From: Ruditapes philippinarum
Taxonomy: Eukaryota
Length of the DNA: 64,000 nt
NCBI RefSeq assembly: GCF_026571515.1
Contig: NW_026853749.1
Span: 1-64,000, forward strand
Direction of reading: 5' to 3'
The notes under the pieces were generated by a model, which was not told the origin of the DNA, did not search any database, and was given only the letters and a program-made list of their open reading frames with translations. How positions within the stretch are numbered: position 1 is the first letter of the stretch; every line of letters starts with the position of its first letter. Shown one piece after another: positions 11,598-43,482 of the stretch. Both the position numbers and the translations under genes were made by a program.

Positions 11598-12672
11598 AAA
11601 TGTCAATTTTAATCAGTCATACAGATAGACTAAAGAAACAAAAGACCTAATGTAAGCCTTGTCTTGATCAACTCATACATCTGAAATATACTTTATGAAC
11701 CAAAAAAGTGTGCAATTGTATAAAAATATATTTTAATGTGAAGATGTTGATGATATATAAAGTCATATTTAAACAGTTTCTGATATACTAAGCAAGATTG
11801 GGCACTAATCTTTTGTTGAAATTTAAATATTTCTTGGATATTGATATTTAAAGTTAAGTAATGAAAAACAAATAATTTTTTTTATTTATAAAAATAATGG
11901 AAGTATGGAGTAAATAACTAAATACTTTCTGACTATACAGAATAAATTTGTATAGTATATCCTGATGAAACAATAGAAGCAAATCAAACTCTTTACAATA
12001 AAATTTCTAAATTATGATTTCAAAAGAATTTCTCTCCAAAATGAATATAATATAAAAAATTTATGACCGTTATTTCTAATTGATAATTTGACATAGGATT
12101 TAAAAAAATTCAGCTGAATGTAATTAAAAATACTTCTATCTGTGATATTTTAATTGACTTAAAATTAATTACATGTTAACATTTATAAAAAAAGAGTTCT
12201 TATTCACATGCTTTAAATGTCCTCCATTTATACAAATGAATAAGCATCTAACCTCTATATTGTGTTATACTGGATTATAAACAACAGCATGGTATTTGTT
12301 AATTGCTTATTAAATGATAAAGTAAGTAAATTAATCTGTTAAAACAGTTAGTTTAAAAACTATTAAAAGTCTCCTAGTCACTCATATAAAAACAAATCCC
12401 CTTCATAAATTAACATACTAATTGGAAACGTTTGATTTTTATACAACCAATAACATCTGTTCGAAAATTACAAAACGTTGAAAAATTAAAACTTATCCTA
12501 CAACTTAGCCAAATATAATATTTTAATAAGTCATCATTTCAATGTATATTGATTTTTTACTAAATAAAATAAGAAATAAATAAATAAACAATCGCACTTC
12601 TAATGACTAAGGGGTTAAAAAAATCTGATTTAAAAAAAATCTGATTAAAAAAAAAAAGATTTAATATCTTGG

Positions 12673-15600
12673 TCATGTGAGATCATTTGGAACCTGATCA
12701 TTCAAGGATGTCTCAGAAAGGTCATCATCACTAAGGTCAAGGTCATCCATATCAAGGTCATCTGGAAGAAACAAACAAACATACAGTAAAAAAGTTAATA
12801 TGTTATTGTCAAGCTATATGTTTCTATCATTTCTTAATGATCAACATTATATTTTGTCCAATCACATTGCAGTATTTTTCAAATTTCTGCTTAGTCTAAC
12901 TATGGTTAATGTGTACTAACTAAATAAAATTTACTTAATCTGTCGTCTAACCTGAGTCTAACAAATTTCAATAATACATTATATTAGGGAGGAGTTAGAG
13001 GTGTCGTTTGCACTCTGAATTATAAAATATCTAGGTTTTCAAAACAATGCCAACGTTACTTTTTAAAGGTCAGGTGTTTCTAAATGTGAGGATACAATCA
13101 AATTTATTACACAGATAATACATGTGGGGCACGCAGAGATAATGATTACATCGTAACTTTTTTATATCCTTTTAACTCTAAGAAAAATGTCTGTTAAAAA
13201 TTGCTGACTATTTTAAACTTTATATTTTCCAAAACATTATTTTCTTTCAGTTGATAGGAATGAACTGCATTTAAACAATCCTTGACATTAAGAATACAAT
13301 TTTTGGCTGGAAAACTCATTGTAAATGGACCTGTAAACCTAAATTGACACACAGAAATATAAAAAAAGTGAACTGATTTTCAAATGAGCAATTCAATAGG
13401 GATTCAATAGGGATTTTAAATGTTAGTGAATAACTTGAAGCTAATAACGAATTTGTATCAATTCTTAATCTCTAATGTATTTTTCTCACATTTTACTTTT
13501 ATTTTAAAAGGATGTACACATTTCATTAACTGCATTATTTTTATCTAATTGCATCATTTTCCTGGCTGTTTTTTTCCACATATTTTATAGAAACATGATA
13601 GTCTTACTGTAGATAAAGATAAAAAATTCTGTGACAATTCAGTAAAAAAATGTTGAAAGGGCCATTCAATTAGCTTATCTAAATGTGACATGTTAGAAAC
13701 TTGACAAGGTGTAGACATCTTGTAGAGCGAAAGGGCGGAGCTATCAGTGATTTAGAGCAATGCCTTGTTTTTGGTTGAAAAAAATAATGTTGATCATTAA
13801 ATAGGTTAATGTTTAATAATATGCATTAACAAAAATAATTGGTCGCCTGCCTGCGGCAGGCTTGACCAATTATTTTTGTTAATACATATTATTAAACACT
13901 AACCTATACATAGTGGAAATAAAACCTCATAAAACATACACGTTTATGTTCATGGTATTTATATATATAGTCTATTTCAAAATATTCAGTAACTGTATTA
14001 TCTCTGATAATATCACATTCTAACAACAAGTAGGAAAAGGCCAAAAAATCATAAGTAGAGAGTACTAATATTAATTCCAAGGATGGAATAAATTTGCATA
14101 TCACACAAGCACACTATGAGACAGATTTAAATTTCTTAATCTATTTTTCTTGTTTGGTATTTATTTAAAGTGATATAAACAAATGAATTGGTCAGTCAAC
14201 ACTCTTAATTTTAAGAGGACACCTTGATAAAACTTCTTTCATATCCCTATCAGGACTTGACCTGCAGAGATCACCATGTTGATTAAATACATGTACCAAG
14301 ATGAATATTGATTAATCCATTAAGTTGGAACACCGCTAAACCTGTCCTCATCTAATCCAGTCCTATTTCTTCTTTAAGAAGATTACCCTCTAATGTGGAA
14401 ATCCCTTAATTTCAGATAGTTTCCCTAGCTCAAATATCTTTAAACAGAATAAATTACACATACAATCCAGTCTAAAGTTTGACAAAACAAATAAGTCTGG
14501 ACGTTTGTTCAGATGAAATTTTTGAAAGAATTTTTTAGTAACATTTAAGTTATTCATTTCCAGCTGTTTAAATACAGTCCAAATTGCCTTTATTATTATA
14601 AATATTGAAAAGAGTACTTTGTCTCATATGAAAACCCCTCTAGTCCGGAAACTTGTCTAAACCAGACATCTTTGTCTGTATGTTGTTGGGCTCAGAGGGA
14701 TTCAAGATGTATACATGCAATATTGGCCAAAAACCAACACTGATAAATCATCATCATTTTATTATGCGTAAATTTTATAAAATCAAACTGTGAAAAAAAT
14801 AATTACCAGAATCTAGATCATCAATTTTATGTTGTCTTGTAAACTTCTTATCTTTAGCTGTACCAGGCTCAAACTCAGTAAAATCTGAACTCTCCGAACT
14901 TGCATCATCAGATAGATCTATATCATCTAACACTCCATTCTCATAGGGCTTCATCATAGGAGGTAATCCTTAAAATAAAATTTACATTTTCATCTAGGCA
15001 CAATGTCATAAAGTTTTATAGACAAGATCTAAAATATTCTAGCTCGACTATTCTTAGTGCTTGATAATAAAAGAGCCTTGATAATACAAATTTTTTTAGT
15101 TAACAAAGGGGCCAAATTTTTCTTTAAATCAATGTTACAGTTATAGGCCTTGGAGAGAGTCCTATTATGCTAAATAATATGTATAAAATTTCAGTTTGTT
15201 TCAAAGCCAGATGAAAATATCTGAGGTGGTATACAAACTTAAACGTCAATTTTAAGTCAAAACAAGAGCCCGGTTTGAGCCGGGTGATGCTCCCCGAATA
15301 GGTTTTGGACACAGAAAGTACACCTCTTGTAGTTTCAGAGTTATGTCCCTGGAAAAAGTTCAAAGTGCAATAATTCCAAAATATGGCAAGGCAGAGTTAC
15401 TGTTCTTTGCACTGCACGCACTTCTAATCAATGTGATCTATCAACCTACAAAGTTTCTTGATGATATCTCTTATGATTTCCAAGTTATGTCCCGGACAAT
15501 TTCAAAAAGTAAAAATAAACAAAGGGCAATAACTCCAGAATTAGGCAAGGCAGAGTTATGATTCTTGTGCACTGCACATCTACCCATTGAGATATATCTA

Positions 15601-18600
15601 CCTACAAAGTTTCATGTTGATATCTCTTATAGTTTTACAGCTATGTCCTGTACAAGATTTTTCTAAAAGGGGAGATAATTAAAAAATGAGGCTTAACAGA
15701 GTTATGGTTCTTTTGCACTGCACCTCTACTCAATGAGATCTATCTACCTACAATGTTTCTTGATATCTCTTATAGTTTTAGAGTTATGTTCCGGACAAAG
15801 TTCAAAGTGTTAAAATAAACAAAGGACAATAACTCCAAAATAAGGACAAAAAGAGTTATTGCTCTTATGCACCGCACATCTACCCATTGAGATCTATTCA
15901 CCTACAAAGTTTCATGTTGATATCTCTTATAGTTTTAGAGTTATGCCCCAGACAAGATTTTTCTATAAGGGGAGATAATTCAAAAACCAGGCAAAATAGA
16001 GTTATGGTTCTTTGACACTGCACTCCCCCTTAATGCCCTCTACCACTGTATGAAGTTTCAACAAATTATCTCCAAGGGTTTTCAAGTTATGCTCCGGACA
16101 AGACAACGGACGGACAGACAGAAGGACGGACGGACAGACAGACGGACAAGGCGCCGACTATATGCTCCCCCGAAATTTTTCGGGGAGCATAAAAAGGGCA
16201 ATACTCTTTCAAAATGCTTGATAGAGTTACCTCCTCTTGTCTACAGATTGGGGGCATGATGAACAAGTGTGCAAAGTTTCAAAGCCATATGTCAATGGAC
16301 TTTGTAAATATTTGAGGTGTTACAAAACCTTTTACATAAATTCTAAGTCAGAAAAGGGGAATAATTCTGTCAAAATGCTTGATAGACTTATCTCCTCCTG
16401 TCAACAGGTTGATGACATGATGGTGAACAAGTGTGCAAAGTTTCAAAGGCATATGTCAATGGACTTAGAAAATATTTGAGGTGTTACAAAAACTTTAATG
16501 TAAATTCTAAGATAAACAAGAGCTGTCGGTAGGACAGCAACGCTCGACTATTCTTAGTGCTTGATAGTAAAAAAAATGCTTGATACAGTTACCTCCTCCT
16601 GTTTACAGGTTGGGGTAATGATGGTAAACAAGTGTGCAAAGTTTCAAAGCCATATGTCAATGAACTTTGAAAATATTTGAGGTATTACAAAAACTTTAAC
16701 ATAAATTCTAAGTCGAAAAAGGGCATAATTCTGTCAAAATGCTTGATACAGTTACCTCCTCCTGTCTACAAGTTGGGGTCATGATGGTGAACAAGTGTGC
16801 AAAGTTTCAAAGCCATATGTCAATGGACTTGGAAAATATTTAGGGTATTACAAAAACTTTAACATAAATTCTAAGTCGAAAAAGGGCATAATTCTGTCAA
16901 AATGCTTGATACAGTTACCTCCTCCTGTCTACAGGTTGGGGTCATGATGGTGAACAAGTGTGCAAAGGTTCAAAGCCATATGTCAATGGACTTTGAAAAT
17001 ATTTGAACTATTACAAAAACTTTAACGTAAATTCTTAGTCGAAAAAGGGGCATAATTCTGTCAAAATGCTTGATACAGTTACCTCCTCCTGTTTACAGGT
17101 TGGGGTAATGATGGTGTACAAGTGTGCAAAGTTTCAAAGCCATATGTCAATGGAATTTGAAAATATTTAAACTATTACAAAAACTTTAACATATAGAGGA
17201 TATTTGTTTAGTTTAGTGTAAGATCGAAATATATTTCACCGAGTGAGCACCAAAATGTATATTTCACGAGTGGCGCAGCCACGAGTGAAATATGAACTTT
17301 TGGTGTTCACAAGGTGAAATATATTTCGATCATACACTAAACTAAACAAATTTTCTTTTTATTATATGCAAAGAAACGTTTTAAAAAGACATTAAACCTA
17401 ATACTGAATGAAAAGCGCGCCAAATAATAATACAACGTGACGTCATTTACGACGTCACGTCATTAAGTTGGTACCCAGTACTGTGCACGCTGGTATTTCA
17501 CTGAAACAACGTAAGGGGCTTAAATTCAAAACAGTGAAATTATCAAAGTGGTATTTTCACTGTTTCAAACAGTGAAATTACCAGTTTTATTTCACTGAGA
17601 TATTTCTATAAACCACCGAAAAGCATGTAATAAAAGTGGTTACGCCGACGCTCGGGGTACTACAATAGCTCTACTTATTCTTATCGAATAGTCGAGCTAA
17701 AAAGGGGCATAATTCTGTCAAAATGTTTGATACAGTTACCTCCTCCTGTCAACAGGTTGGGGTCATGATGGTGAACAAGTGTGCAAAGCCATATGTCAAT
17801 GGACAAATATTGGAAGCATTACAAAAACTTTAACATAAGTGGTTACGCCAAAGCCGATCCTTAGGTGACCAGTAAAGCTCTACTTATTTTTATCGAATAG
17901 TCAAGCTAAAAATAATAATTACATGCTTGATATAATTGGTTACATCTTATGACACTACAGACCACTAGAGCCTTTAACAACGGCATGAGCTGACACTTGC
18001 ATGCAGCCATCGGTCGTCTCATAGCAAGCTGGCTACATGTAGCTTCCAAATAATACAACAAATAATATAACACCTTGGCAGTATTATAAATAATAAAAGT
18101 TTTTTCTGTCAGATGATTTTATTCACTTGGTCGTGAAACCTTAAATAAGAAACACATGACACTTACCATTGGTATATAATGCTGACTTGGATATGGGTGA
18201 AGTTTTGACTGGACTTGACACAGGGCTAGATGATTGTTCTATAATATCAATCTTGTCCTTCAATGCACTTAAAGTACACCTGAATTATGAACAATATACA
18301 GTATTTACATCATACATTATATTATACAGTAAGAAATAATCCAATTTTCAGACAGTTAAGTGATAAAATAACATTTACAATCCTGTTTGTACCTATCAAA
18401 CTTTAAACTAAAACATTGCTGTTTATTCTGAAGACAAATAAAAAACTATGACAAGCTCTCAAAAGAGAACAGAGACAGACACACAATCAGAACTTCGATG
18501 GAAAATACACAAGAAACCATAAGATCCGGATCACGATCTTAGAAGGTGGCTAAATGGTTAAGAAGTCTGCATCATACTCAAAGAATCGTGGGTCCAAGAT

Positions 18601-21600
18601 ATACTGAGGTCACAACCATATTTGTTAGTTTTGGAAAGCAATCTTGAAAATGGTTCCAATTAATTTCAAGCTTTAATATCAATCAAACTTAAATTTATAA
18701 GTCAATACCAAATAAGAAAAATAAAGATTTTATCACCTGAGCTCATTTATCTGCATTTTCTCCAGCTGCCTGTTTGTGTTTATCATTGATACAGTAGATG
18801 ATGGTAACTGAGATTTTTTCTGAGCAAGTGACAATGAATTCAGCGTCTATAAAGTAATATATTCCACAATTAATGCACAGATGAAGATAATTACAAATCA
18901 GAACCAATATCAAAGAAAAAAAAATTTGTAAAAAAAATTCCGAACAAAGTAATCTTTATAACATACATGCATCAGGCTTTCACTCACATTCATAGAGTCT
19001 TATTTAATATTTTATCTTAAATTTTGCAGTTTTAAATTTATCATGATTTATGATCGCAAATTTAGCAAAAAAATACAAAAAACAACAACACGCTGTAATA
19101 TTAATATTCTCTATATCTAACAAATCTCATTTTTAAGCATTTTTGTCATATGCTTTTTCTTAGTGAAACTCTTAATAGATAATGTAAAATTTATTCAGTT
19201 TTATATATCATTAGAGTCATTAAACAATTTTTACATATTGTACATGAAAACTTGAAACATGATGTCATGTTAGTGCAATAACTGATTAACTCCTATTAAA
19301 TTTGGGACTTATTCCGTTACTAAGATGACAATATATGAGCTACGTCATGACAAAACAAACATAGTGCGTTTGCGACCAGCATGGATCCAGACCAGCCTGC
19401 GCATCCGCGCAGTCTGATTAAGATCCATGCTGTTTGCCATCAGTTTCTCTACTTGTAATAAAGTTGGTAAGCGAACAGGATGGATCTTAATCAGACTGTG
19501 CGGATGTGCAGGCTGGTCTGGATCCATGCTGGTCGCAAACGCACTATGTTGGTTTTGTCGTGACGCGGCTCATATCATACCCTGTCAAAACCATCCTGAC
19601 GACGCTCAGTCTCTCGTCTCCCTGATAAAACACTGGCAAGTTCTAGCTCAATTTTTGCTGTAAAATATACAACACTTAAAAATACAACCTCACACATAAA
19701 TTTCAACCTTTTCTTTAACAAATAACTTCAGTTTTAATAAGGGATTGAAAATAGAAAACTATATTCATTCTTTTTCCAATTAAAAATTTGAAAACATTTT
19801 GGATTTCTTTTCACTATATAACCAATCTAACCACATTAAAATAAACTCTTTTACTTTGAATCAAATTTAAATGAAGAATATAATGAATTATGAACTTTAA
19901 ATATTCAATAATGCCAGAATAATGCTTGTTTTTAAGTTTTCATACATTCCATATAATATTACCAAACATAGTAAACAGCCATTAAAACATGGCCATATAA
20001 CCTGTTTCTTAGTGTCTTAATAACCAATATAGACCACTGAATAATTGTTTGATTTTAATAAAAATATCATTCATTGTTTTGCAGCAGCCATTTGTATAGA
20101 TCATACAAATATTTTGATTGTCCAATAAAAAAACAGTATTATACATCGTATAAATGTACCCGGTACATACCAATCCTGGAGCGCATGACTTCAATATCTC
20201 TACGGAAACCTTCAAGCTCATCTCTGAATGCATGCTTTCTGTAACAACAACAACATTTCATTATAAGTCTTGTATTATGATGAAATTCCTATAGGATATT
20301 TATAAAATCAACATTTTCTTTTTTCCAACTAAGAAAAAACCTAGTTACTACAAAAGCCAGCACAATTATAATTACACAATATCAATTGCATTTTATAAAA
20401 CAAAAGATAGTTTTGAGAATACATTTCATTTAAGACTGCTATTATACATGTATATACTATATCAAATACACAAAGACATAACTTATGTAGTTTTTTATTG
20501 TTGTTGAACTGACAGTACCAATTATGAACAGGAGGGCCATGATGGCCCTGAGGTCGCTCACCTGTATAAAGGCACCCGGGGCGGGGCCAGTTTAAACCCC
20601 AGAGCTTTTATTTGAACAAACTTGGAAGACACCCATTAGAAGATGTTTCATGCCAAATATCTAAGCTCTAGCTCTTAGGGTTTTTTAAAAGAAGATATTT
20701 AAAGTTTTTTCTTTCGGTTGCCATGGCAACCAGAGTTCTGCATGGAAACAACTTTGTTAAGGCTTCACACAAGGAACATCCCTGTGAAGTTTCATTATGA
20801 TCTGCCTTATGGTTTCAGAGGAGATGTCGTTTTAAAAGTGTGAACGGACAACGGACGACGTACGACGGACGCAGAGTGATCCTAATAGCTCATCCTGAGC
20901 ATATGCTCAGGTGAGCTAAAAACATATCAATTTTTATTCCTGGAAAAGTGTGGGTGAAAATAACATGATATATAAATACCCTCTTTTATCAACTCTAATA
21001 CTAGATTTAATCAATTTTCAAATAGAAGCATGATTTCATTTATATTTATTTGAAAGACATTAAATTCACAACTCTATTGGTAAAAGAAGAAATTATCATG
21101 AGACTGTAACATATCTTCGAAGTACTTTAACAAGCATTAATTTTCACACACAATAAAAATAAATGTGCATATTCTATTTCTGGAATGGTGGAAATAACAT
21201 CAAAATATCCTAAAATATTTCATGAAAAAATAAATCTACAAACAAGAGATCTACAAATCAAAATGAATATTGTGGTTAAGGAACAAATATTAATAATATC
21301 TTGAAAAATTCCAACTAATCTGATGATAGTCTTCAATTTAAGCTAAGATAAGTATTGGACATCCTATATCAATTATTAACATCCATTTGCTGCTTTTAAA
21401 TTGTACCATATGACCATCTAATATATTTACATATTGGACACTGCAGCATCCTATATACAAGTAGTTATCCTGTACTGGACAATTTAGTGCATTTGACTTT
21501 TACCATGTCACGTCAAATTGATAAATGCCGTTAACAACAAAATTATCAGAATAAATGTTACGAAGAACATTGAAATGGTTGAAAATAAATTTTACTCTGG

Positions 21601-24600: not shown

Positions 24601-27600
24601 GCTATATTATGTCAGAGATGTTATCTATGTCTCTGATTATGTCTACTAAAAGTAACTAACATTATGATTGCCCTTATGTTCAAACTTACATTATTTTGTT
24701 GTTCTATTTTATCAAGAAGGGTGGTTGTAGAAGGGTATGGCATGACAGTACTGGTTGTTGCTGTTCCAGTGAAGAGTTCAGTAGGAAAACTCTGGTTGTA
24801 GACTGAAGGTGAACCACTTGGTATCTCTAATAGGGAAGTACTTCTTTTCATTGGAGTTGAATCTATTGTAAAGGTAAAATCAGAAGTAACAAACTTGTGA
24901 AGAATGATTAACAATTATTAGACTTTTTTATGCATAAAACATTATGAAATCAATCAATGATTATTTGTGTCAGTATATTTATACATGCTGATATCAAAAA
25001 CAAAGCATATCTGATTATTAACTGTTAATTTTACAAAAATGATATAGTGAAGAAAATTACTAAGTTTATACTCACAAAATTTTGGGGCCCATGTAACATT
25101 TTTCGATCCATTTGCATCATACTTGTTCTGAAAATTCAAAAGAGATTTCTCTTTTGTGTATTCTAGAAATTTTAGTTGGAGAAGCAGGGACTCTAACTTG
25201 AGGCATCTAGCTTTGAAGGAAAGAGTTTTTTACCACTAGATTACTGAAAACATGCCTGCTTATTTGATGCCAAAACAAGTATGACACTACTCGCTCAAAA
25301 TCAAAGACATAAGTTGCCTACTTAAAGTAGGCAACTTATGTCTTTGATTTTGAGCAAGTAGTGTAACTTTAATTATTTTCACATATTACTTTAACTTTCA
25401 TATTTTCAATTAGATCTACATGTTCACTGTGATGTTACACATATAACCTATCTACTGTCTATGATAAGACTGTCTCAGTGTATAAACTATTAAACTCACT
25501 TGCACTTAGTTAAACATAAAAAGATATATATGAAAAAAAAAACACTCTTTAAACTTAGTTTAAAATTGTTTGCAATGTTTCCTATTTTAAATTTTTTACT
25601 TGTAGCAGAATTACCTTATCACATGAATAAATTATTCCAAAATATTTTGGGACCTACATGATAACTTCAGATAAACTACTGTGATAACATTGGATTCAGT
25701 ATCATGAATTGTGACTTCTACATCACAATGTGTACCTTATTATGACCTAGATGAAGAGACACAACCCTTATAAAATTAAACAAGGATAAGCTAAGCATAT
25801 ACTTCATAAAATATTTGATAAATGTTTTATACTTACATCTACCACTCGATCTGAATTACATGTTGTTGAAAACCGGACAGTCAGGGGGTAGGGGGATGGG
25901 GGGGGGTTGTAGTGAGTGAGACTTTTCAGGCTCCTGAATGTTTTGGACTTGGTTTTTTCGTCTCTGAGACATGCCATTCCTGATCTTTAAAACAGCTAGT
26001 TTACAATACAATATCAGTATGTGTGACATGTCCTATGTTGTTATAGTTTGACTAGTCAATGGATTGGATTATCTCAAATACCAGGGTTTTGAGGACGTAA
26101 TCAGGTAATGCCCTAAAGGAAACGACTGTTTACGTCCTCACAAGACAAGAAAGGATGATAAATATATGTAAATCAGTCGTGTCCACAGACATTTGAGGTT
26201 CAGAACCTATCCTTGTTTTGAATCGCCCCTTAATTTAAACGGTCAATAAAAATCATTAATATTTTAACACAAATGGGATGCTATTGGGGATCTGTCTTAA
26301 TCATTAAACTTGTGTTAGCGCCAATAGTTGTATTGTGATTTGGTATAAGAATACCGCGTGTTACATGAGTTACTTCCCTTTGTGTTAGTTTTGCCATTTG
26401 CTCTGTAATAAAGTTAAATTGTTCGTTGGTGATTCTTTCTCCTTACTGGCGTGGCGGCAGCTGTGTTAATAAAGAAACAACGCCTGTTCGATGCTAAAAA
26501 GACTTTTTCGTTAGCCACTCTACCAAAATCTGTACGGAGGCGGAATAAGCTCAATCAAGGAGTCCAACGAGGCAGTTTTTTACCAGTAACTGTTTACAAT
26601 TTATCTTGCAAATACAGCAGTGTATAAAGGAGCTATTACTTACACTTCGTGACTTAAAACTGTATCTATGGCAACTCAGCGCGCTCCTAAGCAGTGGCGT
26701 CTCACTAAGAACGAGACTATAACGTCATTCGAGTCGTGGCGTCAGAATCTCCAATATACACTTTCTCTTGACGCCAATTTTGCTACTTACTTGGTCGATG
26801 GAGCTACTTGGTTAAAGAAGACAAGTAAAAACCCGGTTCGTGCTTTACAGACGACGGTGAGGATGTTCCTCAACAGGCACGGAGAACAGCGCTCAAAAAG
26901 TAACACATTTAGAATTGATGCTGGCCAAATTGCTAACTTTTGTCCTGTGATTTCTAGAAATACCATAGTAAAAATTCTACATGCATGAATGACATTTGGC
27001 AGGCTATTCGATTACACTTCGGTTTTCAAACCAGTGTGCGGTCATTTTTTGACTTTGACGGTATAAAATTAGAACCTGGAGAAAGACCTGAAGATCTTTA
27101 CCAGCGTCTATACAGTTTCGTTGAGGACAGCATGCTCACTACTACAAGTAGAATAAGCCATCATGGAGAGGTCCCAACTTCTGACGAGGAAATGACTCCA
27201 ACTCTTGAAAATATGATTGTGTTGACATGGCTCAGGCTTGTTGATAAGAATTTACCAATCCTGGTAAAACAGCGGTACGGCACTGAGCTTCGGTCAAAAA
27301 ACGCTGTCTTCATTAAAACCAGAAATTTCTCAGGCACTTGACAGCTTATTGGACGAAATTCAAGTTTCAAATGAGGCAAAAGTACTTCGTTCCACATTCC
27401 ATAAACCTGGTTATACAAAACAAAAACAAAAGCAAAAAGAATGCCCTTTGTGCAAGCAAGCGGACGTCAGAAGTTCAATCATTTCTTAAGTGCCTGCAAA
27501 TACCTACCTGAAGAGGACAAACAGTACATGACGAAGGTGCGACAAATGGCAGTCATCGACTCTGACAGTGAGTCGGAAACCGGACTCTGAAAGCATCCCA

Positions 27601-30600
27601 AGTGCTCAAGAAACAGTCACATCGCGTAACACGTAGAGTCGGCACAAAGCAGTCTCCAGCTATAAAGATGTTTCATCGGCACTTTCCTGTTACCATAACG
27701 CTTGATACCGGTGCTGAATCCAGTATGATCAAGCATTCTTTGCAAAGTACATTGACGCACCCATCATGAAGAGTAATCAACATGCTACCCAAGCTGATGG
27801 TGTAACCCCATTAGACATTATCGGCGAAACACACATTACTTTGTCACGGGCGCCTTTGAGTTTCAGTTGGATGCCCTTGTTGTTGCTGACTTAGATGTAG
27901 ACATTCTTGGCGGTGTGACCTTTTTATGGCCGCTAATGATATTTCAACACGCCCAGCAAAAACAGCAGATAGTCTTGCATGATCGTGAAATTGTCCATTA
28001 CGGCACAACCTTCTCATGCCGATTCTAAACACAGAGTGCGCAGAGCCCAAGTTCCTTCGTGATCCGTGCTCCGAGGGTCTTCACAGGTTACATGCCTGGG
28101 TCATTTGTAGAATTGGACACCCCCAGTAATGTCGATCCCGAGGATCATTTGCTGTTGAGCCGAAATGTGAACACAACTCTTGGTTGTCACCCCAAATTGT
28201 TGATGCCGTTGTGTAAGATTCGTATCGTTAATACCACTGGTGAGCCCGTAGCAACCCGAAGACATGAGCATGTGTGTAATGCAAGACATACTGAAACTAT
28301 GTATGAAAGCTGTACAGACCATTTAGAAACAAAAAACAATGTCAAAAATTTGAATCCTGGCAACTACTCAAAAACCGTTGTGCTTGACCCGGATAACACT
28401 CTAACCAATGAGACCAAACAGAAGTTTCGTACTACTCTGTATGAGTTTGACAATGTTTTCAGCCCACACCTAACTGGATACAATGAGCAGTAGCCCTTTG
28501 AAGGCAACAGTGAACATGGGGCCTGTTCTTCCCCCTCAGAGGAAAGGACGAGTACCTCAATACTCTAAAGACAAGCTTGTTGACTTCAAAGTAAATTTGA
28601 TGAACTGGAAAGAACAAGGCGTGTTTTGCTCGACCTGAAGATACTTAATGTTACCGTCGAGTATCTTAACCCATCATTCCTGGTTAAAAAGCCACAAGGC
28701 GGATTCAGATTGGTGACCGCATTGCTGATGTAGGGCGGTATAGCACAGCCACAGGCCTTCGTTAATGCTGACGCTTGAGTCTGTTCTAAGATCAATAGGC
28801 CAATGGCAGTATTTGATAGTTTCAGACTTAAAAAGTGCATTCTATTCAGATTCCCTTGCCGTGAGTCGCTTAAGTACTGTGGAGTGTCTACACCATTTAA
28901 AGGTATCCGTGTATACACCAGATGTGCAATGGGAATGCCTGGCTCAGAGACGGCCCTCGAGGAGCTCATGTGCCGAATTCTGGAGATCTACTCCAGGAGG
29001 GTATTGTTTGCAAGCTTGCAGATGATCTCTACTGTTGGCGGTGACACACCTGAACAGCTACTTCACAATTGGCGTCGCTGTACTCGCTGCACTCGATAAT
29101 AGTAACATCAAACTAGCCCCATCAAAAACAGTTATCTGCCCTAAATCAACCAATGTGCTAGGCTGGATTTGGTCAGAAGGAATTTGTCTGCTAGCCCACA
29201 CCGTGTAGCTACAACTTGCTTTCATGTCAGCCTCCGGAAAATGTCCGCGGTTTAAGGTCGTTCATCGGAGCATACAAAGTCTTGAGCAAAGTTGTCCCTG
29301 AATGTTTCTATCTATCTTGCCCCACTAGACGATTTGACAGCCGGTCATCAATCGCAAGACAAAAAACGATGGGATGATCAAAGTCTCGAGCATTTCGAAA
29401 GGGCAAAACGTGCATTAAACGACCATAAATCAATCGTCATCCCCCAACCAAAATGACAAATTGTGGATTGTAACAGACGATCGGTAACCAGGCGTGGTAT
29501 TGGTGCTACGTTGTATGTTATGCGAAAACACAAGCTACGATTAGCAGGATTTTTTAGTGCGAAGTTGCGCAGACACCAAGTTACCTGGCTACCATGTGAA
29601 ATTGAGGCTTTAAGTATCGGAGAGCAGCCATTAAACACTACAGTCCGTATATTGTGCAATCATCAAAAGCAGCATGCGTTCTTACAGACAGTCAGCCCTG
29701 TGTTCAGTCAGTTCAAAAGCTCTATAGGGGTGAATTTTCTGCCAGTCCAAGGGTGACGTCATTTCTGTCTAACGTGAGTAGATATCAGGTGGTCGTACAA
29801 CATTTAGCAGGCTCTGCTAACGTACAAGTGATTTCGCCAGTAGAAATGCGCCAGATTGTACGGAAGTACGATGCCAGATTTGTTCCTTCATACGCGCTAT
29901 GGAAGATTCAGTTGTGCGTTCCCTCAATGTTGACGATATTGTCAACGACACTGCCCGCTTACCTTTCACTACAAGATCGGCTGTTGGCGTGATATCCAGG
30001 GTGAATGTCCAGACTTGCGTCGCGTGCACTCTCACTTAAAGCAAGGGACTAGACCGTCCAAAAAATTAACAAACATAAAAGATGTTAAACGGTACTTTGC
30101 AGGTGGTTACTATTTCAAAAGATGGTGTTTTAGTTGTGAAGCGTTCTGAACCATTCTCTTCCGAGAAAAGAACAAATAGTTGTACCACGTTCCGTTCTTG
30201 ATGGACTTCTTACGCCATGCATGTCAAGCTTGACCACCCTACAAAGCATCAGTTAGACTTGTTGGTGCGAAATACTTCTTTGCTTTAGATATAAAACAAG
30301 GCTATCGAGCGTGCAACTAGCTCGTGTCACACGTGTGCTTCCCTTAAGAAATTCCCAAATCATTAGTACAGCAGTCGAGCGAGGATCCCCCAGAATCCGT
30401 CGGATTAGCATTCGCAGCTGATGTCATGAAGCGTAAGTAAACAATGCATTCTTGTTGTACGAGAAGCCGTAACATCATACACAAAAGCTGTCATGGTTGA
30501 CAATGAACAAAAAGTCACTTTACGTAATGCTTTAGTGTGTTTAATGATGGATATGCATCCAATTCATGGTCCACCTGCTGTGATAAGAGTTGATCCCGCA

Positions 30601-33107
30601 CCCGCCTTTGTTGCGCTTCGCGATGATGAGCAGTTAAAACAGGCTAATATAGTATTAGACATAGGTCGTGTTAAAACGCCAACAAAAACCCTGTTGCTGA
30701 AAAAGCCATAGCTGAATTAGAGGACGAGATAGTTCGCGTCCAGCCCGGTGGCGAGTCTATTTCTGAAGTTCAACTGGCCACCGCCGTGAACCACCTGAAC
30801 TGCCGTTTGAGACGAAAGGGAATCTCTTCCCGTGAACTGTGGACACAACGTGATCAGTTTACGCACAACCAAATCCCTATAAGTGATAGAGATGTTATTC
30901 TTTCTCAAAATTCTACTAGAAACAAAAACCACTCGTATAGTGAAAAGTCGAAGTGTTCGTCATATCGAAATTGTGAAACCATAGAAATAGTGATATAGTG
31001 TACTTATACTCCGACAAAACTAAACATGCTTCTCGACAGCGATACATCGTAGTTTCCGTTGATGGTGATTGGTGTTTCATAAAGAAATTCACTGGTAACC
31101 AATTACGCTCCACCTCATACAAAGTGAAAAGATCGGAATGTTTTCGTGTGCCTTCTGATATATGTGATATATCTCATAACATCCCAAATCTGACAGAATC
31201 TGATTGTGATAGTGATTCGGAGATATGTGAAGGATTAACTGTTCAGGACGACAATGCACCTGTAACTCTTACAAATCCGTTTGATTCTGACGATGAGAGT
31301 TGTTCCCCTTTGATCGTTATGGAGCAAGTTCACGCAGATGATCACGACGTCGCGGTAGACGATAGTGTATCACATACTAGCAGACCACAGCGTTCTCGGA
31401 AACCCCCTAAGTACTTAAATGATTATGTGTGTTAATTACTTTGCAATATGTGACAACATTAATTCACCATTCCACACGAATTTAAAGTTTTGTTCAACGC
31501 TAGATCTAGTTTAATACCAAATGTTGTTTATATTGAAATAATGTTATTGTTATAACAATCTTGAAAGTGTATCTTAACTTTCTGTCGACATTATGCATGT
31601 TCAAGTTAATCCCACACATGTGTTCAATATTGTTGAGTTTTTACAAAAGCTTTATTTCTTCTTTCAATCTAGTGTTATAAGTAATCACACGTTTTAGTTG
31701 TTCACTACTTAAGCAAGTACTATAGAAGTCATGTGTGTGTAATTATATATCTTTATATATATCTTTACTGATCTGATACTGTTTGAATATACCTCGTCAA
31801 ACAAAATATTTTCATTTCAAAAGAAAAGAGGTAGCGCCAATAGTTGTATTGTGATTTGGTATAAGAATACCGCGTGTTACATGAGTTACTTCCCTTTGTG
31901 TTAGTTTTGCCATTTGCTCTGTAATAAAGTTAAATTGTTCGTTGGTGATTCTTTCTCCTTACTGGCGTAGAACCATTTCCACAAAAATAATAAAAAATTT
32001 CATTTATCTCAAGTCTAAAGTAAAGGGTCGATTCAAGCCGGCAGGGTCTTTCAAATAGAATGGTCTCGAAACACGCTATGTAAACCCTTCTCACTACAAT
32101 TAAACATGTCTCGGTATAACTAGGTGTAGTTTGCTATACGCAAATTATGTAAGTGTTCAAGAAAAGGGCAAATATTAAATACAAGAGCAAAAATGAAAAT
32201 TTTAATGACATGATGTTATTTAAAAATCTTTAAACTTGTGAAAAAAGGATAAATATTTCAGAAAATAATGTTTTTTAAAGCCATATTTGTTGAAAAACAT
32301 AAATTGCTTGTTCAGAATATTTGCTGATAAACGGCGCCATTTTGAAAATGCACCAAATTAAACATCAAATATTTGCAAATAACATCGTGAAATATTATAA
32401 TATTTTTACATGATACGATTTAAAAACATCTTTTCTCTGTAAAATCAATTTTTATTTTGTCATTGAACAATGCATAAATTTAAAAAGAGCTCATGAAACT
32501 CAGACCTATTTTCAAATATGAGCAGTAGATTTTACCTTGACACCGGGAACGAAAAATTCCTAATTTCATTGCAAATCTATAAAATTGTTATCTTTAAAGT
32601 AAAAACTGATAATATAATGTAGTCAGAGTTAGTTTTTAGTAAGTTTTTGATTGCTTTAACAAAACATTATCTTATAATTTGATTTTTGAATGGTGATGTG
32701 CTATGCGGTAGATAACCCAATCACGTGACTCAACCCGAGACAGTTTTTTTCGTAAAATTGGTCCGTCTCCAGACCATTCTATTTGAAAGACCCTGAAGCC
32801 GGGGATAGGGTTTGACTCAATGTCTGCGGACAGAGTCTGTGGTCTGACATGTCCATATGTAGACACTTGAGGGTGTGGAGCTTAAAACGCCTTTAAAATC
32901 CAAATAAAATGTATATTTGTCAATCTCAGCAAATATACATTTTATTTGGATTTTAAAGGCGTTTTAAGCTCCACACCCCAAGGCCAAGTGTCTGGTCATG
33001 TCAAATTATGAAATTATTCACTTTAATTTACATATTCTTACCCTAACTTTCGATAAATTCGCCTTTGATTCGTTAATGATTGACGTAAATTTCTTTTCCC
33101 AATCCAT
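12673..33107 (-). CDS. Uncharacterised ~397-aa protein with central coiled-coil-like segments and an acidic DDLDL-rich C-terminus (11 coding exons)
   Basis: Minus-strand exons, all GT-AG and phase-compatible: 33107-33042, 25127-25076, 24862-24690, 23727-23646, 23109-22908, 20238-20171, 19657-19581, 18846-18737, 18279-18167, 14968-14807, 12761-12673 (TGA). Total 1194 nt, open throughout. Starts [22 protein letters not shown], contains [26 protein letters not shown] and [23 protein letters not shown], ends [29 protein letters not shown]. The two 5'-most exons are less certain. Confidence 0.8.
13801..13907. repeat. ~107-bp near-perfect hairpin with a GC-rich core
   Basis: ATAGGTTAATGTTTAATAATATGCATTAACAAAAATAATTGGTC-GCCTGCC TGC GGCAGGC-TT-GACCAATTATTTTTGTTAATACATATTATTAAACACTAACCTAT. 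Confidence 0.85.
15261..16194 (+). mobile_element. HINE/pearl-like element: 5' hairpin, ~150-bp internal repeats, GGAC/GACA microsatellite, 3' hairpin
   Basis: AACAAGAG-CCCGGTTTGAGCCGGG-TG-ATGCTCCCCG at the 5' end; (GGAC/AGAC)n at about 16105-16148; 3' hairpin ATGCTCCCCCGAAATTTTTCGGGGAGCAT followed by AAAAA. Inserted in an A-run of the host repeat. Confidence 0.8.
16514..17701 (+). mobile_element. Younger HINE-like copy of the 163-bp repeat family, nested in the older copy
   Basis: AACAAGAG-CTGTCGGTAGGACAG-CAAC-GCTCGACTATTC ... GAATAGTCGAGCTAAAA. TGCTTGATAC recurs at about 16577, 16740, 16903 and 17067. Confidence 0.8.
17193..17633 (+). mobile_element. Large-hairpin element inserted in the 16514-17701 element
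   Basis: Interrupts host AACTTTAACAT|AAGTGGTT. Starts ATAGAGGATATT; hairpin 17202-17351 with ~70-bp arms; internal TTTATTATATGC is inverse (1 mismatch) to terminal GCATGTAATAAA. Confidence 0.75.
19337..19571. mobile_element. Palindromic MITE copy 4 (ATAT TSD)
   Basis: ATAT-GAGCTACG...GCGGCTC-ATAT; adjacent to the splice donor at 19576-19580. Confidence 0.9.
20527..20922 (+). mobile_element. Short HINE/pearl-like element
   Basis: AACAGGAG-GGCCATGATGGCC hairpin, sub-terminal GCTCACCTG, (GGACGAC)n tract, 3' hairpin CTGAGCATATGCTCAG followed by GTGAGCTAAAA. Confidence 0.75.
23148..23283. mobile_element. Palindromic MITE copy 5 (internally deleted, 136 bp)
   Basis: Both termini intact; the centre is collapsed between GGATCCATGCTG repeats. 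Confidence 0.9.
25284..25364. repeat. 81-bp near-perfect palindrome
   Basis: ACACTACTCGCTCAAAATCAAAGACATAAGTTGCCTACTT-A-AAGTAGGCAACTTATGTCTTTGATTTTGAGCAAGTAGTGT; one mismatch. Confidence 0.9.
26316..26452 (+). repeat. 5' LTR
   Basis: Base-for-base identical to 31832-31968; contains TATAAG and AATAAA. Confidence 0.95.
26452..26465 (+). promoter_or_regulatory. Primer-binding site, probably tRNA-Leu type
   Basis: TGGCGGCAGCTGTG directly after the LTR; 12/14 match to TGGTGGCAGCGGTG, the complement of a common eukaryotic tRNA-Leu 3' end (recalled, not searched). Confidence 0.6.
26668..31435 (+). pseudogene. gag-pol polyprotein, frameshifted as assembled
   Basis: Gag N-terminus [14 protein letters not shown]; Zn-knuckle-like CPLC..H....C (27442-27497); protease LDTGA (27701-27715); [28 protein letters not shown] (29012-29035); RNase [25 protein letters not shown]; integrase [31 protein letters not shown]; C-terminal [16 protein letters not shown]. 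Confidence 0.9.
31832..31968 (+). repeat. 3' LTR
   Basis: Preceded by the polypurine tract; identical to the 5' LTR. Confidence 0.95.
32042..32795. mobile_element. 754-bp non-autonomous DNA transposon, 25-bp perfect TIRs, 7-bp TSD
   Basis: TIR CAGGGTCTTTCAAATAGAATGGTCT at both ends; AAGCCGG duplicated at 32035-32041 and 32796-32802. Confidence 0.9.
32871..32978. repeat. Perfect hairpin, 49-bp arms and 10-nt loop
   Basis: 32871-32919 is the exact inverse of 32930-32978; extends with a bulge to AGACACTTG/CAAGTGTCT (32861-32993). Confidence 0.9.
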
Positions 33108-34830: not shown

Positions 34831-35655
34831 ATATGGGATCTGGACGTACGCTACTAAACTAAAATAACATCCATCCTATTGACGTGTGTCATTTAATTGA
34901 GTGCATTGTATATGTTAGGCCTATATATCCCTGTGTTTAAATTACAAGATTTCTCCTACTTTTATTTTATTATTTTATCACACATGTCACAGAATTGATT
35001 TTTAAAGCAGTCGTCTAGACAAGTTTTAATCATGATTTACTAACAGACTAACACTAGATAGCAACGTTGACGCAACATGCACATTATATTCTGATTGTTG
35101 TTCCGAAATCAACTTTTCAACATAATAGCTTGAACTACACCGTCGTCCTTTCTAACACACTATCGCCTGATTAAAATCATTGTGAACAATGACGTTCAAT
35201 TTTATCTGAATTCCTTGGAGGAAGCTGTTCATTAATATTCACGTAATTTTTTTAACAATCTTCGTTCAGCTTTTAAACATTGTTAAAGAAAACAATCTTA
35301 TAACTGAACACTTACCGAGTTGATGCGGGAATATTTGATATTGCACTTGACTGTTGTCTCGCATAACAATAATAGCCTCCTATGCAGGATTTTATATGTC
35401 TATCGCATCCAAATAGAATTAATTGTGTTTAACTTGAAGTATGGAATATATGATAGCATTCAACATATCACATTATTTTTATGTCAGTCCAGCTTTGACA
35501 TCAACATGACTACTTTATTGTATATATGCATGCATGCGTGTTTGCTTGCGAGCGTGCGTGCGTGCGTGTGCATTATGAAATGATCCATTTGCCTAGGAGA
35601 CACAGCATATAACTTTACATTACCTTATACGGAAGCTTATTAGGGTCCAGTAAAT

Positions 35656-35870
35656 GAGCCGTGTCATGACAAAACCAACATAATGCGTTTGCGACCAGCA
35701 TGGATACAGACCAGCCTGCGCATCCGCGCAGTCTGATCAGGATCCATGCTGTTCGCTTACAAACCGTATAACAAGTAGAGATACCAGTAAATGAGCCGTG
35801 TAATGCGCAGACTGGTCTGTATCCATGCTGGTCGCAAACCCATTATGTTGGTTTTGTCATGGCACGGCTC
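35656..35870. mobile_element. Palindromic MITE copy 6 (AAAT TSD; internal rearrangement)
   Basis: AAAT-GAGCCGTG...ACGGCTC-AAAT. Confidence 0.9.
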
Positions 35871-36734
35871 AAATGTAACTAGGCATGCATTTCATAATAC
35901 AGACAGTGGTTGGAAAACATATTGTAGAATGAAACAAAAGTCCATCTCTAAAGTCATTTAGGCTAAAATCAAGATTTTAAATAAATGCACCAATTTGCAT
36001 AAACTATTAGAGAAAGTACTTTCCTTTCTTGTTGCCCGTGTGTAATTTGAAGCACGAAAAGTGGTGAGATTTTACCTCTGTGATATTTCTAATATTCCAT
36101 AAACACAGAGCTATATATACGAATCTCTGCCATAGATTATTAATGAATGAATCGGAAAATAGATCAACATGACCTAAAATGTTTATTAGTCTTAAAAGGT
36201 TAAAGATGCCGTTCTTTCCACAATTCAGATTTCTAAGTTTCAAATTTACCCATCTTAGTGTTTAATGTTGAAATTCTTTTTAAGCCGGTGCTACGGGGCG
36301 TAGACGATTACTTCCACTTTCCCGCACCGTCCATGAACAGACTCAATCAAACCGAGCCGGCAACATTTTCAGTTTCAGTTCAGTTCATATAATATGCAAC
36401 TGGTTATAACAACAAACAAACAGAAAAATAACAGTCAAAAATCACTAATATCACAATATAAAAATACAATTATGACTAGATAAATAAACAAAAAGGAGAT
36501 CATATTGTTCATTTTAAGTACTGAATTCAATACAACATGTATTTTATATTGTAACAAATGGGAACGGAGAATGAGAAGTATTAGTTATCTAAATTTTAGC
36601 ATAATGTTTTTTTCACAACTATTCATTAATGTTTAATTAATTTCTATTTTGACATAAATTTACGTCTTTGGTGCTGCAAATAATCTGCCGTCGTCTATAC
36701 TATGGTAGTTGTTCATTCTTCGCGAAGTACATAT

Positions 36735-36969
36735 GAGCCGCGTCACGACAAAACGAATATAGTGCGTTTGCGACCAGCATGGATCCAGACCAGCCTGCGC
36801 ATCCGCACAGTCTGATCAGGATCCATGCTGTTCGCTTACCAACCCTATTACAAGTAGAGAAACTGATAGCGAACAGCATGGATCCTGATCAGACTGCGTG
36901 GATGCGCAGGCTGGTCTGGATCCATGCTGGTCGCAAACCCATTATGTTGGTTTTGTCGTGACACGTCTC
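36735..36969. mobile_element. Palindromic MITE copy 7 (ATAT TSD)
   Basis: ATAT-GAGCCGCG...ACGTCTC-ATAT; full length. Confidence 0.9.
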
Positions 36970-38144
36970 ATATATATATATATGTACACTCTGAGATGAA
37001 TTCGAAGAGAGTAACTGATGACTGCTCAATTTTATATCGTACATTAACGTCATTTATGTCAGTTAAAGGCAAGCTATATCATTTTTCAGTAACAAAACAC
37101 AGATATATGCGTTTTAAATAGCTTCTTTTTGACCTAAAATGATCAAATCGGCCACCTTTTTTAACATATTAGGGTTGAAATTGACGGTCACAGAAGCGAC
37201 TTTATAAGTAACGCTAAATGAAGTGTAAAAATTGAGTAGAAATAAATCGAAGAATCTTTTCAAACCAAGAGACGCGAGAGCGATTCGGTTTTAGTGGTAA
37301 TTTATCATTTAAAAGACGGCTATAAGGCGGATTCCTTTAGAAAGTTTATTGAAAATTTACGAATTAGCACTCGCACCACTTCATGTCAATATAACTGTTC
37401 ACGATAAGGTTTTAACCACTATAATCTGTTTTAATAACTGCGGAAATTTGACAGGTTATACGGTAATTATTTCATTAACACTTTTAAGATGTGTTGCAGA
37501 ATTTTCTAAACATATTCATTCATGCTCATACGTGGAAAAATTGTGGAGACATCCAATGATTTTATTAAAACTTTGATCTCGTAAAAAAATACAATTTCAA
37601 ACTGCGCCGACTAAAATAACCAAGTCAAGTAAAAGTTCAACCATGTCGCTAACAGTCTAACATTATATTATAGCGGAATCGAGAGAAAAACGTTGAAAGA
37701 CCCGTTAAAAGGGAAATGATTACACTCCTATGACAAGCAATTGGTGCATGTGAAATAATAGAACGGATAGTTTCTATATTTGATATATGATACGTTCAAT
37801 AGTGAAATTGTTAGATTGTTGAGATATCAGTGTGTTATATCGCCACTGACCATTGATCTTGAATGTTGCTTTTATTTTAAATAAAAAGTTGGGAAATGTC
37901 AATATTTCCCGAACAATTATAGAAATATGTGACCTACTGGAATAACCTACATTTAAAACGATCTACTTTTTTGGTGTGATTTTTTTTCATTTCCACTGGA
38001 CTAAAAATAGTTTTTACATGAATAACTTCTACAAAAAAAAGAGAAAGGAAATAAATATTAATTAAACTACATTAAATAGAAGTACGGTTTTATGATATAA
38101 ATTTTTATATTCATAAGAAGAGGGATTACAAGTGATTTATTAGA

Positions 38145-40387: not shown

Positions 40388-41010
40388 GAATCAATAATTG
40401 TGTTAGGCAATGCCAGAGAAAAAAAATCTATTTTTGAATCAATAATTGTGTTAGGCAGAACCAGAGAAAATATACCATTTATGAATCAGAAATGGTGTTA
40501 GGAAATACCAGAGAAAATATACCATTTACGAATCAATAATGGTGTTAGGCAATGCCAGAGATAATATACCATTTATGAATCAATAATGGTGTAAGGCAAT
40601 GCCAGAGAAAATATACCATTTATGAATCAATAATGGTGTTAGGCAATGCCAGAGAAAATATACCGTTTATCAATTGAAACTGGTGTTAGGAAACACAATA
40701 GAAAATATACAATTTAGGAATCAATTATGGTGTTAGGAAATCCCAAGGAAAATATACCATTTATGAATCAATAATGGTGTTAGGCAATGCCAGAGAAAAT
40801 ATACCGTTTATCAATTGAAACTGGTGTTAGGAAACACAATAGAAAATATACAATTTAGGAATCAATTATGGTGTTAGGAAATCCCAAGGAAAATATACCA
40901 TTTATGAATCAATAATGGTGTAAGGCAATGCCAGAGAAAATATACCATTCACGAATCAATAATGGCGTTTGGCAGTACCAGAGAAAATATATTATTTATG
41001 AATCAATAAT
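40388..41010. repeat. 47-bp minisatellite, ~13 copies, with a 141-bp higher-order duplication
   Basis: Unit GAATCAATAATGGTGTTAGGCAATGCCAGAGAAAATATACCATTTAT; 40624-40764 is identical to 40765-40905. Confidence 0.95.
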
Positions 41011-41811
41011 TTTATAAATACGGATATAAAAGTATATGTATTTTTTTCCGATTCCATAAAATATCCGAATGTCTGTATAGAGGTGAAGGGTATCCACACT
41101 TTTTTTTATCGTACAGTAACAGGGTGGTGGCCTACATCAATAAGCTCTGTTCTGTTTTGCTCCTGTGTAAAAGTTGATCGCGTAGTGTAAAAAACATATA
41201 TACACGTTTACAAATATATTTTCAAACATTTAAGCATAATAGTACATCATCAATGATTAAATGCTTTATTGTAAAGTAACGTTCATCATTTTCAAGTACA
41301 CTAAATTTCTTAAATGGATTTATCAGGCTTTCATAGTTTAAAGTGACATTATGTCCATCCAAGGGGACAGGTGAAAGTAAAAAAAAAGTTAACATTTTAC
41401 CATAATTCCTTTCAATTTTATAACTTACTGCGCATGAATGATAAATAAACCTCATGATCCACGGAAATTTCTGTAAAAAGATATCAAAGTAAACCTGTAA
41501 TATTCAATTTATAAAAAAAGTGGAGCAGTCTTTTTATATATTAGGCAGATTTATATTAAATCTTAAACATTTTCTAAAACAACTTTTAACAAATCACCAT
41601 TTTAGCAGTCAAGCTTTTGAAATTTATATCAATTCAATTTCGGCTCAACTTGAACATGAATAAAATGAGCATAATGCCACTTTAAAGCTGGTAATTTAGA
41701 GCCTTGCCTAACTGCACGAATATTCAGACTTGTTAGGCTCTAGCTTAAGTGGAAGACCTTCGGTTTCAGCAGTGGACAGGTTAAGTAATAACCATGAACT
41801 GGAGTACATAT

Positions 41812-42048
41812 GAGCCGCGTCACGACAAAAAACCAACATAATGGGTTTGCGACCAGCATGGATCCAGACCAGCCTGTGCATCCGCGCAGTCTGATCAGGA
41901 TCCATGCTGTTCGCTATCAGTTTCTCTACTTGTTATTGGGTTTGTAAGCGAACAGCATGGATCCTGATCAGACTGCGCGGATGCGCAGGCTGGTCTGGAT
42001 CCATGCTGGTCGCAAACCTATTATGTTGGTTTTGTCATGACGCGGCTC
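41812..42048. mobile_element. Palindromic MITE copy 8 (ATAT TSD)
   Basis: ATAT-GAGCCGCG...CGCGGCTC-ATAT; full length. Confidence 0.9.
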
Positions 42049-43482
42049 ATATGTCCTTTGTTACCCCATAACATTTCATCTAATCTTATAATCATATTAA
42101 TTCAATCACATCTTTTTTATTTTATTTTTCAGTTCTACATTTGTACCAATAATAAAGGAATGTTAGGCAATCCCTTGTGAGTACATTTACCTTAAGAACC
42201 AAGAGTGTAGACAATGATCCACATTATTGAAACTAAATTTCAACTTCTTATTCGTTAAAGCAAAAGTTTGAAGAGCAACCACAAGGCCGGCCGCATATTC
42301 AAGATTAAGGGTTTCCTCAGTACATCTCTTGTACCAGATCTGATAATGCCATTAGTAAAAACCAGTTACTGGCAAACATTTAAAAAAAAACATTTTATTA
42401 TATTCAATATGCCACCATCTTCGTTTGTAGCTGAGGTCACGTGCCCGTACGAATCGGTAAAGGTCACTTGCCCGTAAGAATCTATATATGAACATTGAAG
42501 TTGGGCTCGTGGCACAAATAAAGCCCAGCGGGGCAAGCGAGATCTTCCTGAGCAAGTTAAGCATATATCATTCACTATAGACTTTAGACACACATTTCAG
42601 AGTACAGGAGCAGAGCGTTTATTAGAGAGCATACAATATCATGTCAACTTAAGTAGGTTCTGAATGAAATAGAGATAACTTGCATAATCTTCAAGGATCT
42701 TATATAATCATTATATTACTACCAATTACTATCAATCATCATCAAGTTTGAATTAATTTATGGTCAATTACCCCCTTTAGTGAAACCCCTTGACACAGAG
42801 TGAGTGGCATGATTAAATCTAGGGTAAAGGAATTTCAAGGATAATTTACATATTCTAAATCAATATAAACTATTCATTCCGATTAAAGAAATCAAAACTT
42901 TGCTTTTTTGAATGCCACGTATCCGAAGTTTTGACAAAATTGGTGAAGGGTTTCAGGATCTAATATTTGTATGAAAATGTCCTGGTTTTCATTGTTCACT
43001 GTATTTTAAACCACCTTGCTATATTACACACATTATCCAAATGAATGTAACACAAGCCTGTATTGTCTGATACCCTGTATCCACAAAGGACACTTATATT
43101 CATAATCTTCTTACCTTTCTAACAAAAAATGAAAACATCTTATCAAGTATTAAATAATATTTAACACCAGCTTGAGTAATAGGTTGTAAGCATTCATAAA
43201 AGTGGACATTGTATACATATTTTTGTTTCATTTTAACGTATAAAACGGAGAACAGATTAATGATTATCAAAACATATAGAACAAACTTGGTAACAAGGTG
43301 ACAGTTGATCAAAGGTCAAATACAGGTCAATTAAACACTTTAAATAGTTTGGTTTATTTGTCTGTTTTTAGTCAGTTATTAACCCAAACAAGATTACTCC
43401 CACTGACAGGATTAGAAGAGATAAGAAAATATCCCTGGAATAATAGTGCAAAATGTAAATTTATTATTACAAAAACTTACTT

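Follow-up and report, generated by a model that had tools for sequence, protein, structure and literature searches.

LTR retrotransposons have their RNA packaged by Gag, prime minus-strand synthesis from a tRNA and plus-strand synthesis from a purine tract, and integrate through a DDE integrase that makes staggered cuts in the target, which gap repair then closes. Troyka elements were reportedly first described by Kapitonov and Jurka in 2008. The group is defined by 5'-CG..CG-3' ends and 3-bp target-site duplications, confirmed on empty loci (Kojima 2025, PMC12440569). In that study, 573 of 603 LTRs begin with CGCCA and 522 of 603 end with TGGCG; LTRs measure 100-400 bp and internal parts 1.5-7.7 kb, most members carry a single unbroken Gag-Pol frame, the zinc knuckle has the form CX2CX8-10HX4C, and the GPF/Y motif, tether and env are lacking. 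Troyka was found in 70 of 86 bivalve genomes, 586 LTRs were published, and the family name Trojicaviridae was proposed (PMC12440569). According to the available part of PMC11673190 (Gong and Han 2024), Kuafuorterviruses are the same lineage, include the Repbase Troyka elements, measure 5-6 kb and carry IADD, VADD or LADD in reverse transcriptase (RT).

The window analyzed here is a stretch of 64,000 nucleotides, and the element at 26316..31970 is almost certainly a recently inserted, polymorphic Troyka (Kuafuortervirus) LTR retrotransposon, an assignment made from its ends and motifs rather than from a tree (Table 1). Self-comparison of the window revealed a direct repeat of 137 nt with 100% identity (26316-26452 and 31832-31968), for which the chance expectation is E 6e-67. 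It contains the identical 133-bp LTR cores (26319-26451 and 31835-31967), which start with CGCCAATA and end with TACTGGCG, an inverted match at 7 of 8 positions that gives the termini CGCCA..TGGCG; identity runs on for 3 nt leftward (TAG) and 1 nt rightward (T). The element is 5,649 bp long with an internal part of 5,383 bp, has a G+C content of 39-45% compared to about 31% in its surroundings, and has no second copy within the 64-kb window. The trinucleotide TAG stands at 26316-26318, 31832-31834 and 31968-31970. No flanking duplication of 4-8 bp was detected with the start shifted by -6 to +10 and the end by -10 to +6; the same scan returned five 3-bp duplications, of which only that at 26319/31967 coincides with the repeat ends. 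The window comparison thus reproduced what the initial annotation had described, namely the direct repeat with 133-bp copies and 7/8 inverted ends, the TGG of the primer site at 26452 directly after the 5' copy with no spacer, TAG on both sides and after the purine tract, and the lack of a 4-6 bp duplication under shifted borders.

Table 1. Features located in the window
Feature	Position	Strand	Basis
Left target-site duplication, TAG, 3 bp	26316..26318	+	Single 3-bp target at the empty site, runs X1 and X3
5' LTR, 133 bp, CGCCA..TGGCG	26319..26451	+	Repeat comparison
AATAAA inside 5' LTR	26407-26412	+	
Primer-binding site, tRNA-Leu type, abutting the LTR	26452..26461	+	9 of first 10 nt equal to tRNA-Leu(AAG) 3'-end probe (available part of PMC6103689)
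gag region, frameshifted	26668..27500	+	ATG at 26668; Gag piece matches relatives
Zinc knuckle, CPLC (27442)...HFLSAC (27480)	27442-27497	+	Motif reading
Aspartic protease region, LDTGA at 27701	27641..27960	+	Weak Pfam Asp_protease_2, E 0.052
Reverse transcriptase region, SDLK at 28822, LADD at 29015, shifted frames	28490..29300	+	Motifs, shared with Kuafuortervirus rows
RNase H region, directly after RT; VTD at 29470, PCEIEAL at 29592, LTDSQP at 29681	29330..29830	+	Motifs
Integrase region and C-terminal tail	30200..31435	+	Motifs; weak Pfam rve, E 0.013
Integrase motifs	DHP 30232, CHTC 30325, FAADV 30411, RVDPAP 30586, KNPVAEK 30684	+	
Polypurine tract, 13 nt	31819..31831	+	Run X8 record 17 spans tract to primer site
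Spacer TAG, 3 nt, purine tract to 3' LTR	31832..31834	+	Element-internal, outside the LTR
3' LTR, 133 bp, equal to 5' LTR	31835..31967	+	Repeat comparison
Right target-site duplication, TAG, 3 bp	31968..31970	+	Repeat borders and empty site
Palindromic repeat copies, ~240 bp	1841-2070, 3323-3554, 11377-11603, 19333-19575, 35654-35877, 36725-36976, 41805-42058, 60369-60564, 61022-61235		
Tandem array, period 300 bp	15392-16023		
Tandem array, period 163-164 bp	16192-17193		
Tandem array, period 47 bp	40388-41010		
Tandem array, period 162 bp	45923-46275		
Tandem array, period 31 bp	59837-60153		
Tandem array, period 449 bp	62227-63859		
Host exon, YL1_C domain	47236-47580	-	Pfam, E 1e-12
Open reading frame, 236 aa	51461-52171	-	

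The interior contains a Gag-Pol spread over many short frames broken by frameshifts, with the domain order gag-PR-RT-RH-IN according to the motif positions in the window. In the zinc knuckle, 26 nt (8-9 codons, over a frameshift) separate the second Cys from the His. The integrase displays HHCC-type residues and D, D and E motifs at 30411, 30586 and 30684, and 383 bp remain between the final stop codon (31433-31435) and the purine tract. No GP[FY] motif was found in the three forward frames of the window, and Pfam searches of 16 window fragments gave sub-threshold matches only. From 26680 to 31429 the window is colinear with a 1,637-aa relative, P0047, in which RT occupies residues 720-859 and RNase H begins at 927; nine stop-free pieces of the window have median identities of 53-87% to relatives.

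Elsewhere, the window contains a largely palindromic repeat of ~240 bp in about nine copies that are 79-93% alike and probably form a MITE family, as well as several tandem arrays. A miniature inverted-repeat element at 32042-32795, with 31-nt arms that are 94% complementary, lies 71 bp to the right of the insertion; it is a high-copy repeat, since each of the four sequencing runs described below shows very high depth at 32042 together with numerous loose ends. The YL1_C exon identifies the window as animal-type genomic DNA. The 236-aa frame on the minus strand, which we take to resemble the C-terminal end of ORF2 from a non-LTR retrotransposon, had no Pfam match.

Four public runs of the same organism (X1, X3, X8 and X23) were compared with positions 25700-32300 of the window. 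One contig from X1 joins 26315 to 31968, skipping 5,652 bp, and three letters fit either side, so a single TAG is present; its 527 letters comprise 425 from the left and 102 from the right, with none unaccounted for. In one contig from X3, position 26316 is linked to 31970 through a single T, giving a 3-bp target read as TTG. The empty allele was therefore seen in two of the four runs, and the prediction in the initial annotation of an empty allele with one TAG was realized in X1, with X3 also showing a single 3-bp target. The joint was absent from the X8 contigs and from the X23 raw reads, both of which barely cover the left flank (about 4 in 100 of the X23 reads were sampled, with the left flank uncovered). 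The empty site in two of four runs indicates that the insertion is polymorphic, and together with the identical LTRs this suggests that the insertion is young. Record 17 of X8 runs without interruption from the purine tract through TAG and the LTR into the primer site, differing by two other letters and one gap over 26316-26554, which shows that the LTR ends were not created by errors in the window; the outer junctions of the filled allele are spanned by no record among those listed and are read from the window alone. In X1, the contig of a diverged copy (record 2) starts exactly at 26319. Contig depth in X1, which is no copy number, was 58-190 in the element compared to about 10 on the left flank and suggests several copies. 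Contigs of low depth in X1 and X3 skip short internal stretches (26682-26737, 27007-27107, 27227-27300 and 30213-30298) and probably come from deleted or diverged sister copies.

The same contigs bear on the frameshifts. Mid-element, record 20 of X8 differs from the window by 49 gaps and 16 substitutions, and records 4 and 6 of X1 by 18 gaps and 6 substitutions and by 20 and 8, respectively. Gaps are rare near the element ends (2, 1 and 1 in X1 record 8, X8 record 23 and X8 record 17) and absent from the 425 bp of left flank in X1. Because gaps far outnumber substitutions mid-element, are few at the ends and are missing from the X1 left flank, and because the LTRs are identical, it is quite likely that most of the frameshifts are assembly errors in the window, arising from unpolished long reads in a multicopy repeat, rather than decay. 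Nine gaps in the X3 flank contig (record 9) argue against assembly errors, and the identity of the two LTRs was counted on this side as well.

With the Gag piece, 82 related loci were fetched, of which 63 have the Gag start and 50 the upstream primer-site motif, directly after the LTR end (50/82). The five bases preceding the primer site are TGGCG in 39 of the 50 (29 of 40 non-redundant loci), and the last two are CG in 46 of 50. Both outer junctions were readable in four related loci, and two of these have an exact 3-bp duplication: L004, with CAG on both flanks, and L015 (6172-7965), a Troyka copy reduced to 1,794 bp by internal deletion, whose 144-bp LTRs are alike at 136 of 144 positions and which is flanked by TGA on both sides. 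Flanks of CAA and CAG agree at 2 of 3 letters in L002, and no match was seen in L027, whose LTRs have diverged; L028, in which a 5' start was not found, and L029, in which the 3' LTR runs into another primer site, were left out of the set. The closest relatives found, L001 (3031-5372) and L061 (2366-2717), share 81-92% nucleotide identity with portions of the element; each is a fragment, and L061 joins an LTR piece directly to gag. None of 538 pattern matches in genome contigs was confirmed. The viral contig set gave two loci found by protein, and 120 stretches retrieved from it with a 16-nt LTR/primer-site pattern (80 fetched) were taken as chance phage matches.

At the protein level, 888 of 954 candidates matched the 108-aa Gag piece at E<=1e-5. 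The counts that follow are from the 120 listed of these 888 matches, 33 of which are full-length, with one frame of at least 1,500 aa where the window copy is broken. Among these 33, the RT motif is LADD in 28, IADD in 3 and VADD in 2; the knuckle spacer is 8 in 19, 9 in 13 and not found in 1; GP[FY] occurs in the last 500 aa of only one; and 29 have a D-x35-E integrase. Named matches among the 120 listed are molluscs or entries filed under the genome of a clam symbiont. Taken with the YL1_C exon, these names suggest a marine animal, probably a mollusc, as the host of the element. The Troyka-type sequences P0015, P0027 and P0102, filed under a bacterial symbiont genome, and L081, filed in the viral contig set, are most likely animal host DNA.

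The placement of TAG was considered in the light of these loci. Because the identical repeat takes in TAG, and because 5,652 bp are missing either way so that one empty site does not discriminate, the LTR could instead measure 136 bp and start with TAG, the element having inserted without duplication beside a TAG or by TAG-core recombination in the style of tyrosine recombinases. This is very improbable given that the trinucleotide on the left flank differs from that at the tract side in six of six relatives (L002, L007, L015, L025, L027 and L029), with L015 having TGA on both flanks and TTG at the tract. The contig of the diverged copy in X1 starts at 26319, and no tyrosine recombinase family matched any of the three full-length relatives scanned (E<=0.05), whereas D-x35-E is present. 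The TAG preceding the 3' LTR of the window is therefore a spacer whose identity with the target is coincidental, and on this reading the LTR starts at CG, with which the X1 contig start agrees. Of the two end structures offered in the initial annotation, CG-3' ends with a 3-bp TAG duplication are borne out by the repeat borders and the empty site, and TA-type ends are not supported by the same six relatives. A rule by which each duplication would be a copy of the spacer was discarded (0/6 relatives).

Two further explanations concern the identity of the element. An ordinary TG..CA Gypsy element with junctions damaged by sequencing errors or later deletions would be in keeping with a window copy rich in one-base gaps relative to accurate contigs and with Ty3 as the nearest solved RT-RNase H structure for P0047 (E 4e-24), yet it is hardly credible when both LTR copies agree, X8 reads tract, LTR and primer site with so few differences, the empty site is exact and 46 of 50 relatives end in CG. 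The empty site and the relatives' CG also rule out junction indel errors and post-insertion deletions, which the initial annotation had raised against its own reading. It is very unlikely, too, that a lineage outside Troyka reached CG ends and 3-bp duplications independently, since the RT motifs equal published Kuafuortervirus rows letter for letter. In the Kuafuortervirus supplement, four RT motifs of the window have 24, 21, 21 and 16 occurrences, and the first six of each lie without exception in rows that bear an animal host name, outside the reference rows for Gypsy, Copia, BEL and retroviruses. Moreover, the order PR-RT-RH-IN is unlike Copia, and the knuckle spacing, LADD and absent GPF/Y fit Troyka. 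Against the Troyka assignment itself stand the flanks of L002 (2/3 letters) and L027 (none), the absence of the empty-site joint from X8 and X23, the filled junctions, over which no listed record extends, and one base of the primer site.

That base, position 26455 (base 4 of the site), is C in the window and T in 50 of 50 relatives, and record 3 of X1 supports the C by elimination, as its six substitutions all lie elsewhere. The published tRNA-Leu(AAG) 3'-end probe, in the available part of PMC6103689, agrees with the primer site of the relatives. The C is either a mismatch to tRNA-Leu or a mark of another primer tRNA in the family of the window element; no tRNA or Rfam family was found in the window. 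At the other end of the interior, a Y-N-R spacer is present in 17 of 17 non-redundant tract junctions, found with a search pattern that fixed the 3-nt gap beforehand; in a free scan, an uninterrupted stretch of 10 purines stopped 3 nt short of CGCCA in nine cases, 5 nt in one and 6 nt in six. The trinucleotide to the left of the presumed 5' LTR starts, not all of which are verified, follows Y-W-R, a pattern chosen post hoc, in 13 of 19 cases compared to a background of 13% (12 of 18 when L054 and L055, which have a common flank, count once). Right flanks, with weaker support, give 2 of 6 (CAG, CAG, TGA, GTG, CCG and CAT).

By analogy with the standard LTR cycle, RNA running from the 5' to the 3' LTR would be packed by Gag, and RT would copy it using a Leu-type host tRNA at the edge of the LTR and the purine tract as starting points. 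Both CG-3' ends would be joined by the D,D(35)E integrase to a target whose strands are cut with a 3-bp stagger, and gap repair would then duplicate TAG. Less surely, the right end would need little or no trimming because the primer site abuts CG, the left end may retain as many as 3 additional bp of spacer, and the integrase may favor Y-W-R targets. A more specific proposal, tentative and rather doubtful, is that the integrase treats the ends unequally and prefers Y-W-R, with little or no trimming on the right and removal of the 3-nt spacer on the left; the left 3-nt flap would then equal the 3-bp target gap in length, and the Y-W-R targets would resemble the spacer. If this is true, CG ends, 3-bp stagger and target choice would be one end chemistry that is absent from the main text of PMC12440569. 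That main text does not mention primer, PBS, tRNA, polypurine tract or processing and does not treat target bias; its supplements and the 2008 Repbase report may cover the primer site, the spacer or the target bias. The available parts of PMC12440569 and PMC11673190 offer no explanation for the joining of CG over CA or for the 3-bp cut, and a literature search on primer sites, non-canonical termini and 3-bp targets found no additional studies of Troyka. What was observed on the primer site, the spacer and the target bias gives a first testable handle on the choice of CG and the 3-bp cut.

Among described systems, ta-TRIM and lennie of tapeworms share a tRNA-Leu primer site and a purine tract that stops three bases short of the 3' LTR but, in the available part of PMC4558846, have TG..CA ends, mostly 4-bp duplications and a primer site four bases off the LTR; because the 3-nt tract spacer occurs in such a TG..CA element, it is not by itself specific to Troyka. 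Metaviridae (Ty3-Gypsy) have the domain order and D,D(35)E integrase in common with the element, and Ty3 RT-RNase H is the best structure for P0047. However, their own TG..CA ends, 4-6 bp duplications, CX2CX4HX4C knuckle and frequent GPF/Y (PMC12440569) were all absent from the window element. The integrase motifs follow RT and RNase H, unlike the Copia order with integrase before RT, and DDE motifs are present rather than the tyrosine recombinase of DIRS/Ngaro. Kuafuorterviruses share LADD (here at 29015) for YXDD, the length of 5-6 kb and the RT motifs, and, by eye, rows of two corals in the supplement match it in the LTR end, the primer site and the motif at the start of Gag; ends and duplications are not described in the available part of PMC11673190.

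The initial annotation had singled out this locus as its best candidate for an under-described system, a claim that gives way because its ends and 3-bp duplications are the published definition of Troyka (PMC12440569); its reservation that relatives may already be in repeat libraries was justified, as Repbase Troyka elements exist. The non-canonical ends are genuine, but their kind was in the literature before. The locus is a clean Troyka example with its empty allele and has little weight as a discovery, the ends being a published hallmark; LTR finders based on TG..CA would presumably miss such elements or misplace their borders. Collectively, all defining Troyka features that were examined agree, with the assignment made by motif search, ends and published description. 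No defining difference from Troyka was seen, the reading frame of the window copy being broken as assembled. Shared with Troyka are the CG..CG ends with CGCCA/TGGCG, a 3-bp duplication read against an empty site, LTRs of 133 bp and an internal part within the published lengths, the order gag-PR-RT-RH-IN, a zinc knuckle with long spacing, the absence of GPF/Y and of a tether, too little space for env and, presumably, an aquatic animal host.
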